A DNA stretch of 64,000 nt from positions 2,507 through 66,506 of the forward strand of contig JAZROX010000013.1 of the NCBI GenBank assembly GCA_045648945.1. The letters are read 5' to 3'. Positions 1-2,095 of this stretch are shown here, piece by piece (position 1 is the first letter of the stretch; each line of letters begins with the position of its first letter). Position numbers: made by a program. The DNA is from Candidatus Enterousia sp. Lineage in GTDB: Bacteria; Pseudomonadota; Alphaproteobacteria; Rs-D84.

Positions 1-2095
1 CACGCGCGCCGCCAACGCTTCATCCATCGCCGCGCCCGCCGGTACAGTATCGCCAAAGTTTTTATTTGATAATTTGCATACACGCGACACAAAGTTGCCC
101 AGCAACCCGTTCAAATCTTTATTCACAATTTCTGCAAACCGCGTCATTGTGAAATCTGTATCGTCCGTTTCCGGTGCCGATGCCAATAATGCATAGCGCC
201 AACAATCACTTGGTGCGATGGCAAGTGCCGCGTCCAGGAATATTCCGTTTCCCGTGGACTTTGAAATCTTGGCCCCATTAAAGTTCAAAAAGTTTTGACC
301 CTTTAACACATCGACGGTTTTCCAATTGTCGTCCATCGCCAATTCTTGGGACGGAAAGAAAACAGAATGAAACGACACATTATCTTTGGCCATAAATTGG
401 GTGTAATGACAATCGGGATTTTTCCACCAAGACGCCCAATCCGGATTCGCAATCTGGGAAATAGAAACATAGCCCCACGGTGCATCAAACCAAACATAGA
501 ATACTTTATCTTCATACCCCGGTTTATTTACCGGAATTCCCCACTTTAAATCGCGTGTAATCGGGTTGTCGTGCAGACCTTCGTCCAACCATTTGTTCGC
601 GATTTTAATTGCGGTCTTGGGCCAACCAACGCGGGAATTTATCCATGCGTGCAGTTTGTCTTGCATTTTGCTAAGTTTAAAATACAAATGTTTTGTTTCG
701 CGCATTTCGACCGGCGACGTTGGGTCAATTGCACTGTGTGGGTTGATAAGTTCGTCCGGGTCCAATGACGCGCCACATTTTTCGCATTCATTACCGTATG
801 CCCGTTCATACCCACAATGCGGACATGTCCCAATAACATAACGGTCCGCCAAGAATTTTTTCTCGTTCACCGAATATGGTTGTTTGGATGCCTTTTCTTC
901 TATCATGCCAAGGCTGTCCAACCGGTTAAACAATTCGTGAATCAGTTTCTCATGCTGGGGCGTATGTGTGCGCCCATATAAATCAAAAGACAATTTGAAA
1001 TCGCGCACCGCGTCCAAGTGCTTTGCCCGATATTTTTCAACATAATCTTCAACGGTCATATTTTCGCGCGCCGCCCCAATCTCGCTTGTTGTTCCGTGTT
1101 CGTCGGACCCGCCAATGTAAAGAACGTCGCGTCCCATCGCGCGACAAAAACGCGCATACACGTCGGACGGCAACAAACAACCAATCAAATGTCCAATGTG
1201 CAGGTTGTTATTAACATATGGCAATGCAGATGTGATAAGATATTTTTTTCCCATTGGTGCATCCTTTTTTATAAAAATGGACGCCAAACGGGGCGTCCAC
1301 ATGAATCCCGTTTAATGTTGTGTTTAAAATTAGTTTTGCATTCGCATTGTTTATTTTTTAACCTCTGGAATTTCGTCCGTCTTCGTTCGTTTCACTCACT
1401 ACGCCGAGACACCTAATCGCGGCTTTGCGCTAGCAAAGACGGATGGTGGGTGGTATTGGACTCGAACCAACGACCTTTACGATGTCAACGTAACGCTCTA
1501 ACCAACTGAGCTAACCACCCAAGGCAACGGCCATTATAACAAAGAAATTCCCGATTGCAAGTATTTAGTATTAGTGGTTAGTGTAAGTGTTTAGTGTGGG
1601 CGCGAAATCGCGCCCAGTTTATATTTATGAACGACTTTGTCGCTTGCAACGCAATAAACACAAACCATTATAAAACAGGGACATCAATATATTTTCTGGG
1701 ATTGGTTCCGTGCCACGTTCATAGTGATGCAATTGTCGAACCGATATCTTTAACATTTGTGCCATATCATTTGCCTTGATGCCTTGATTACGACGCGCGG
1801 CCTGCAACATCGTCCCAAAATATTTTGCATCGATTAATAAAACCATTTTCTCCTCCTGTTGGTTAAAAAAATACCGCCAATGACGAATTGACGGTTGGAG
1901 GCTAGAAAACTGTAACACAAGAACAGCGTCTCTTATTCGATATATTCGAGACCCTCCAACCAAACGCTGGAGATTTTGTGTTAGGGGTTTTCTAGACCCC
2001 GCAACGGCGTCACCCGTGCAAAAGTATTATAAACAAAAACAGTTGCACTTGCAATCGTTTTCACTAACCACTATCCACTAGCACTAACCACTCTA

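Follow-up and report, generated by a model that had tools for sequence, protein, structure and literature searches.

What kind of element is the noncoding stretch that a small XRE-type helix-turn-helix (HTH) gene and several secreted-protein genes carry in front of them in Candidatus Enterousia sp.? The question arises in a 64,000-nt window (positions 2,507 to 66,506 of contig JAZROX010000013.1, assembly GCA_045648945.1; coordinates below are those of the window unless a locus is named), where a leader, here leader A, occupies 1847-2054 on the minus strand directly before HTH gene 1. We find that this leader belongs to a real, lineage-wide, multi-copy RNA family, apparently undescribed so far, whose structure is supported by covariation and comprises a three-way junction of helices P1, P2 and P3, an upstream hairpin (S1), two long-range pairings (PK1 and PK2) and a competing strand (segment 1, or seg1). 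We further consider it probable that the leader forms the 5' part of the HTH mRNA and belongs to a large group of bistable transcription attenuators acting in cis.

Leader A contains every part of this design in order, all of it on the minus strand. Following the end of mreB at 2093 come a promoter, a leader of ~170 nt, a Shine-Dalgarno (SD) sequence and an open reading frame (ORF) for a 73-aa XRE-type HTH protein. The promoter-like site, sigma-70-like (TTGCAA-17 nt-TATAAT), was placed at 2026-2054 by a consensus scan, and is followed by Pa, a 5' hairpin found only in HTH-type leaders (GCACGG-GTGA-CGCCGTTGC, 2001-2019), and by S1 (GGGG-TCTAGAAAA-CCCC, 1984-2000), whose loop at 1987-1995 is the 5' partner of PK1, such that CTAGAAAAC at 1995-1987 is the 9-nt complement of GTTTTCTAG at 1910-1902. 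The linker TAACACAA (1976-1983) is the 5' partner of PK2 and pairs with the P3 loop TTGTGTTA; beyond it, seg1 (TCTCCAGC, 1966-1973) imitates the 3' strand of P1 and can pair with the 5' strand, as expected of an anti-antiterminator. The junction then opens with the P1 5' strand GGTTGGAGG (1953-1961) and continues with the P2 hairpin GTCTC-GAATATATCGAATAA-GAGAC (1928-1952), which bears the conserved loop GAATA...AATAA, the P3 hairpin CTGT-TCTTGTGTT-ACAG (1910-1926), whose loop bases 1913-1920 are the 3' partner of PK2, the junction strand J3/1 (1902-1910), which is the 3' partner of PK1, and the P1 3' strand CCTCCAACC (1893-1901). The final bases of that strand open the stem of an intrinsic terminator-like hairpin, ACCGTCAAT/ATTGGCGGT plus a T run (1864-1895), which the consensus scan also picked up, and the SD AGGAGGAG (1857-1850) leads to the ATG at 1846 of HTH gene 1 (1625-1846, 73 aa). 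A sequence-only reading of this DNA had listed for leader A a CTCCA..TGGAG pair (CTCCA at 1972-1968, TGGAG within GGTTGGAGG at 1961-1953), the GTCTC/GAGAC hairpin, the P1 3' strand as its segment 3, the terminator hairpin and the SD, and each of these was located in place; the PK2 pairing of linker with P3 loop was absent from it.

The gene product matches HTH_3 at 24.6 bits (cutoff 23). A word-indexed search of 5.8 billion proteins with HTH protein 1 returned only the protein itself, and an exact look-up gave no match; small HTH genes resembling HTH gene 1 sit behind the same leader in many metagenome-assembled genomes (MAGs).

Within the window, the same core precedes both paralogous HTH genes (members A and B) and three paralogous secreted-protein genes (C, D and E), in the same layout of seg1 with the P1 5' strand, the P1 5' with the 3' strand, and terminator, as had been proposed from sequence. 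The covariance model R1 scores A, B, D and E at 84-110 bits. Besides member A (core 1889-2007, minus strand), these are member B at 25557-25960 on the minus strand (core 25822-25936, preceding the 71-aa HTH gene 2 at 25772-25557; 84.3 bits), member D at 39368-40445 on the minus strand (core 40280-40429, with a hairpin inserted in P2, preceding a gene for a 272-aa secreted protein; 93.9 bits) and member E at 51298-52604 on the plus strand (core 51314-51455, preceding a gene for a 349-aa secreted protein; 109.9 bits). Member C is divergent (5828-6886, plus strand, leader ~5828-6010, 260-aa secreted protein), scoring 16.3 bits with filters off and in the correct register, and its strands are P1 GGTCGGGGTG/CACCCCGACC, seg1 CCCCGA, PK1 TTAGCG/CGCTAA and PK2 ACACATT/AATGTGT. 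A scan of the window for the mimic strand found no members besides these five, and the core pattern GGTTGGAGG-N-GAATATATYGAATAA occurs 3 times in it against 0 expected. The 31-nt block that had been noted as shared exactly by members E and B is present at 25862-25892 (minus strand) and 51384-51414 (plus strand) only, again with 0 expected, and leader A carries 4 substitutions relative to it, as had been counted, and hence gives no match at ≤3 mismatches.

Comparing the paralogous leaders, we found that they diverge chiefly in the P3 loop and J3/1, the candidate address sequences. PK1 reads CTAGAAAAC/GTTTTCTAG in A and B, TAACGAC/GTCGTTA in D and TAAGTAC/GTACTTA in E, so that the 9-bp long-range complement described before in the HTH leaders is real and is one case of PK1, and is not specific to HTH genes, the secreted-protein leaders having it with other sequence. 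The two HTH proteins are 49% identical, and the repeat segments common to leaders A and B are 85-98% identical. As a side observation on the secreted paralogues (6104-6886, plus; 39368-40186, minus; 51555-52604, plus), their N-terminal ~125 aa, a signal peptide followed by AGENVATSKAFVDAGVAQKQDK..., are nearly identical and their C-terminal parts divergent; searches of these proteins gave no hits in Pfam and, in PHROGs, only one weak tail-protein match, in D.

Beyond the window, a strict search pattern (GGTTGGAGG-N3-9-GAATA-N30-60-CCTCCAACC) in a species-representative genome collection revealed at least 119 loci from at least about 80 MAG assemblies, often several per assembly, and among the matches listed nearly all assemblies carry the label of a gut or rumen alphaproteobacterium ('Candidatus Enterousia', 'Rickettsiales bacterium', RUG/RGIG bins). 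The small regulon suggested earlier stands in so far as one leader is common to HTH and secreted-protein genes, and falls short in size, the family being spread in many copies across the lineage. R1 gave further copies in the fetched loci, some with a different P1 sequence. The strict pattern also occurs in 5 viral contigs of IMG/VR, and in both contigs inspected the RNA lies amid phage-type genes. These viral copies (L121:12033-12176, plus; L122:9542-9687, minus) precede accessory genes, one of them encoding a secreted protein like those of the MAGs, and genes near them resemble terminase, lysis enzyme and DNA methyltransferase, judged from ORF reading. A search of the available literature for the motif in Enterousia or gut Alphaproteobacteria found no description.

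Most copies sit between a promoter-like site and an ORF, and the genes behind them chiefly encode small XRE-type HTH proteins or proteins with a signal peptide. The promoter-like site ends 85-95 nt 5' of P1 in 98 of the 124 copies scored, as against 11 of 124 for coding sequence used as a control, and a same-strand ORF with an SD lies downstream of 109 of 126. By a crude rule, 59 of these 109 downstream proteins have a signal-peptide-like N-terminus. Among the 94 complete downstream proteins, 21 match HTH families of the XRE type, a few carry surface repeats, 2 are ABC transporters and most are without a Pfam family. Tandem arrays were also seen (L044:66-1098, minus; L018:6903-7278; L097:748-1151; L093:2802-3095), the one in L044 holding four units, each with its own promoter and terminator, in which variant-P1 and canonical-P1 units alternate and GC-rich repeats lie between the pairs.

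To evaluate the fold, we aligned 126 copies with MAFFT and tested a hand-drawn structure against shuffles (n=500) and slid controls. Over the whole structure, 90.8% of cells are paired versus 80.0% in shuffles, with double-sided changes in 25 of 35 pairs, and the covariation score of 0.307 exceeds that of the shuffles (0.136, 0 of 500 as high) and of the slid controls (at most 0.076). By helix, the double changes affect 4/4 pairs of S1 (89.5% of cells paired), 6/6 of PK1, the S1 loop with J3/1 (94.6%), 5/5 of Pc (76.6%), 5/5 of P2a (94.1%) and 5/6 of P3 (81.9%); at pair 42:241, for example, 54 copies have CG, 46 have AU and 8 have UA. Compensatory changes were seen in seven helices, the long-range ones among them. 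Both long-range pairings also emerge when no alignment is used, by counting contiguous Watson-Crick pairs in a copy's own upstream region and in those of other copies: the J3/1 complement averages 7.2 nt in the cognate and 4.6 nt in the non-cognate regions (50 distinct J sequences), and the P3-loop complement 6.8 nt against 4.8 nt (113 distinct loops). The 5' hairpin Pa that had been ascribed to the HTH leaders holds up as well, since all 17 leaders without Pc have a hairpin of at least 5 bp there, with differing sequences, and, judging from the ORFs that follow, nearly all 17 stand before small HTH genes. In the P2 loop, GAAUA..AAUAA shows more conservation than the search pattern enforced, and a few bases of the 5' domain are also conserved while unpaired; some copies, such as member D, carry an inserted hairpin within the P2 loop. 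The junction is tight, with J1/2 of 0 nt, J2/3 of 1 nt and J3/1 wholly engaged in PK1.

Turning to the competing strand, the pairing of seg1 with the P1 5' strand is kept in 92.9% of cells across the 126 copies, its substitutions being almost all C>U and thus retaining a wobble pair, and seg1 changes along with P1 where P1 itself differs: loci L024 and L035 have P1 GGCAGGAGG/CCTCCTGCC and seg1 CCTTCTGCC, and member C behaves likewise. A terminator, as a short hairpin and U run, follows P1 in 113 of the 126 copies, and in 102 of those 113 its 5' arm opens with the last 2 nt of P1. Because the terminator arm begins with the last P1 bases, P1 and the complete terminator are mutually exclusive; covariation establishes the helices and this exclusivity. 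The nested minimum-energy fold consists of the seg1 hairpin, a long helix and the terminator in 118 of the 126 copies, and with pseudoknot energy left out it averages 10 kcal/mol below a fold in which P1 is forced. In the nested fold, PK1 and PK2 fuse into a single long helix, which also recruits the GGGG of S1 and the CCUC of the P1 3' strand. Independent covariation of S1, P3 and P1 shows that the junction fold exists as well, and PK1 and PK2 may dock onto it as pseudoknots.

We propose that these two folds are alternative states of one nascent transcript. The RNA would begin ~10-20 nt before the 5' domain (Pa and/or Pc, and S1) and, when terminated, would end at the terminator just before the SD. 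In the read-through fold, the three-way junction would form and P1 (GGUUGGAGG:CCUCCAACC) would close P2 and P3, consuming bases that the terminator stem needs. In the termination fold, seg1 would bind the P1 5' strand, the S1 loop would bind J3/1 and the linker would bind the P3 loop, and the released end of the P1 3' strand would complete the terminator. From the thermodynamics we infer that termination is the default state, yielding a short RNA, and read-through would occur when P1 outcompetes seg1 in strand exchange, for which an effector favouring the junction fold (a small ligand, a protein or an RNA) would be needed.

Several observations weigh against this attenuator model and temper our support for it. 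P1 is invariant in the 126-copy alignment because the search pattern demanded it; in the alignment that includes variant copies (A4), 6 of the 9 P1 pairs change on both sides and 99.4% of cells are paired, but A4 had been fitted to the model and is thus biased towards pairing. The overlap of P1 and terminator is merely 2-4 nt, and the GGGG:CCUC extension of the long helix, pairable in 82-97% of copies per pair, shows no covariation. Conserved unpaired bases are almost lacking at the junction, so that no ligand pocket can be made out there. Some copies are also units that consist of promoter, RNA and terminator alone, lacking an ORF, for example in L044, and these suit a trans-acting RNA equally. 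Lastly, termination, read-through and switching are all three inferred.

The proposed attenuator resembles classical ones and riboswitches (the purine riboswitch junction; the trp and pyr leaders) in that a closing helix competes with a terminator, in its upstream anti-antiterminator strand and in the position of the RNA between promoter and SD. It differs from them in having neither a conserved leader peptide nor a match to a known aptamer (none was found in Rfam scans of the window, at gathering and E-value thresholds, and of several loci), in having several mimicked strands, seg1 copying the P1 3' strand and the CCYC of the S1 3' strand resembling CCUC, and in its two long-range helices, which may be common to both folds. 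Leader-peptide attenuation was considered as a candidate and rejected: the 126-sequence alignment shows no conserved start codon, SD or small ORF, and ATGs in leaders D and E are missing from A and B.

A riboswitch for a metabolite or second messenger is the alternative that survives best, and we hold it unlikely. Here a ligand would bind the fold of the junction and P2 loop, stabilise P1 and block termination, so coordinating a regulon of surface proteins and regulators, as cyclic di-GMP riboswitches do elsewhere. The combination of a complex covarying domain with an overlapping, mutually exclusive terminator platform is what such a switch would show, and both the multiple copies per genome 5' of secreted-protein and regulator genes and the retention of GAAUA..AAUAA in the P2 loop beyond what the pattern imposed fit it. 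Against it, with J1/2 and J2/3 at 0 and 1 nt and J3/1 given over to PK1 the junction strands are absent or paired, and no obvious pocket is left. Nor does the gene set indicate a metabolite, the link to metabolic or transport genes being limited to the 2 ABC transporters, and the closest relatives of the family are prophage regulatory RNAs.

Those relatives are approached through sRNA-Xcc1 (RF02221), the sole Rfam resemblance, which remains sub-threshold: member A scores 34.3, member B 32.0 and the copy in L035 30.5 bits (gathering threshold 53), with no hit for C at E≤10 and none for D and E at E≤1, and because all window members fall below the gathering threshold, the leader family is not RF02221 by the Rfam criterion. 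No matches were obtained to Rfam C4 (RF01695), c4-2 or IsrK at E≤1, nor locally at E≤10, and a BLAST search of the Rfam consensus against plasmids gave no match. The leaders and sRNA-Xcc1 share a three-way junction with a 9-bp G-rich P1, P2 loop strands containing AAUA, a short P3 and a U-rich J3/1, a likeness that rests on consensus alignment, covariation and side-by-side comparison with the RNA of E. coli O157:H7 EDL933. sRNA-Xcc1 is borne on prophages and integrons in Xanthomonas, Xylella and E. coli (Rfam RF02221), and like our leaders it lies directly 5' of a same-strand gene, namely ant in EDL933, symE in Xanthomonas cassettes (bioRxiv 10.1101/2025.06.18.660453) and an ORF6N gene in APSE phages (10.1101/2020.03.17.996009); its tandem arrays in Xylella (PMC12189769) are a further likeness. 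It has been described as an 88-nt trans-acting RNA whose 5' end lies at P1 by rapid amplification of cDNA ends in Xcc (PMC2996969). The leaders probably do not have the form of an independent RNA beginning at P1, as their promoter-like site lies 85-95 nt upstream and their 5' domain covaries with the core. They differ from sRNA-Xcc1 in that their unit includes this conserved ~70-90-nt 5' domain, two covarying long-range pairings and the seg1 mimic, as well as in host lineage and gene classes. Judged only from shape and sub-threshold similarity, common ancestry is likely, and the family plausibly shares its origin with RF02221 and added the 5' domain, the strand mimic and terminator control.

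A genuine RF02221 member in EDL933 (L126:39620-39708, minus strand, = NZ_CP008957.1 ~1394619-1394707; 69.1 bits) brings this comparison closer. Identified by a scan of 50 kb, it precedes ant, the prophage antirepressor gene, by 40 nt. R1 places it in the right register with 12.8 bits, its P1 and its terminator look like their counterparts in member C, and 60 nt upstream there is a seg1-like CACCCGA. An exact complement of its P3 loop CTTATTTG, namely CAAATAAG, occurs twice, once 77 nt upstream and once directly against the ant SD. This arrangement recalls the logic of the phage P1 c4 RNA, which is complementary to an upstream site and to a site at the downstream SD, and suggests c4-like control of ant by the EDL933 RNA; we found no paper stating so. 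Citron and Schuster reportedly described, in 1990, c4 recognition sequences complementary to two upstream sequences (a1/b1) in the same transcript. A c4-a1b1 motif has been listed (PMC2864571). Such c4-like logic fits the published placement of sRNA-Xcc1 5' of symE and ORF6N genes and its Xylella arrays.

Measured against c4 and IsrK themselves (immI of P1/P7; Gifsy-1), our leaders likewise have two variable recognition sequences with upstream complements, in PK1 and PK2, and are tied to small phage-type regulators and prophage DNA; IsrK also yields a terminated short and a read-through isoform from one promoter (PMC4825925), as we predict for the leaders. The differences are that the leaders have no a2/b2 site at the downstream ribosome-binding site, where the E. 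coli RF02221 copy has one, that an intrinsic terminator and a strand-mimic switch apparently exert the control, and that they are used on dozens of chromosomal secreted-protein genes.

From these relatives follows a second alternative, that the short terminated RNA acts in trans by base pairing in the style of c4, IsrK and sRNA-Xcc1, with the P3 loop and J3/1 as addresses and the upstream complements as a1/b1-like decoys or as self-targets on read-through transcripts. The sub-threshold RF02221 matches speak for it, as do the two sites complementary to the 8-nt P3 loop in EDL933, the ORF-less tandem units, the precedent of an IsrK short form acting on the read-through form (PMC4825925) and the variation of paralogous leaders mostly in their address sequences. 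Searching within 200 nt downstream, however, we found no a2/b2-like target (cognate 5.10 and 5.03, non-cognate 4.91 and 5.03), and in the window the 8-9-nt partner sequences occur at cis sites only, bar one extra 8-mer TAACACAA at 22352. In the terminated RNA, moreover, both address sequences are already paired in cis. We regard a trans-acting role as improbable.

Joining the attenuator model with these phage RNAs gives a more far-reaching scenario, which we put forward tentatively and with low confidence. The switch class may derive from phage immunity RNAs of the c4/sRNA-Xcc1 type and have expanded to dozens of genes per genome in uncultured gut Alphaproteobacteria, with one global effector, either a dedicated protein or a novel ligand, for instance a second messenger, flipping the strand-mimic switch, and with the address helices PK1 and PK2 letting antisense RNAs address single genes. 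By extension, sRNA-Xcc1 itself might be a cis-regulatory or c4-like leader and not a free-standing virulence small RNA.

Processive antitermination RNA of the put/EAR kind, which would constitutively modify RNA polymerase to ignore the following terminator, is very improbable: a pseudoknotted leader right before a terminator and surface-protein genes recalls it, but the competition by seg1, together with the P1-terminator overlap, points to a local structural switch, most units are monocistronic and leave no further terminators to bypass, and there are no Rfam matches to such RNAs. Mobile or repetitive DNA (of the kind of miniature inverted-repeat transposable elements or repetitive extragenic palindromes) or a DNA-level operator devoid of RNA function, the former a possibility that the sequence-only reading had itself raised, would account for the many copies per genome, the P1 arms as an inverted repeat, the directly repeated GAATA and the frequent TAGTGGTTAGTG repeats nearby, but is scarcely credible given a fixed orientation to the downstream gene, a fixed position between promoter-like site and SD of a same-strand ORF, compensatory changes in seven helices and P2-loop hairpin insertions that preserve the RNA fold yet break DNA spacing, the fixed position and covariation together excluding a mobile repeat.

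If the attenuator model is confirmed, the family would be a large orphan RNA switch controlling much of the secreted or surface proteome, together with many small regulators, in abundant uncultured bacteria of gut and rumen. What makes its architecture unusual is that mimic strands occur in duplicate and two long-range helices covary alongside a three-way junction. With a model, an alignment and over 130 sequences available, the system can be tested directly. Confirmation would also link phage immunity RNAs with chromosomal gene control, and suggests that the catalogued 'virulence sRNA' sRNA-Xcc1 would be open to rereading as a leader or c4-like element.

Some further features of the window were recorded beside the leaders. 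Between terminator and SD, leaders C, D and E hold a second conserved module (6030-6095, plus; 40195-40262, minus; 51470-51545, plus), also present in one HTH leader of a related MAG (L024:5040-5105), with a hairpin CCCCTTC-loop-GAAGGGG, a second hairpin with a compensated stem (ACCGGCGGAGCCGGT versus CACACGAAGTGTG) and then GGGGTAGAC, in that order. Sub-threshold Rfam matches to BSnc120 and STnc430 (24-32 bits, E 0.05-0.45) at 27866-27934 (both strands), 45929-46005 (minus) and 32936-33030 (plus) are probably due to chance, the one at 27866-27934 overlapping TAGTG-type repeats. Short TAGTGGTTAGTG-like repeats number 23 in the window against 1.9 expected, flank the HTH units and cluster, in both orientations, between genes beside terminators and promoters, for example at 1572-1596, 2062-2093, 25504-25535, 26004-26015, 27916-27947 and 52629-52667.

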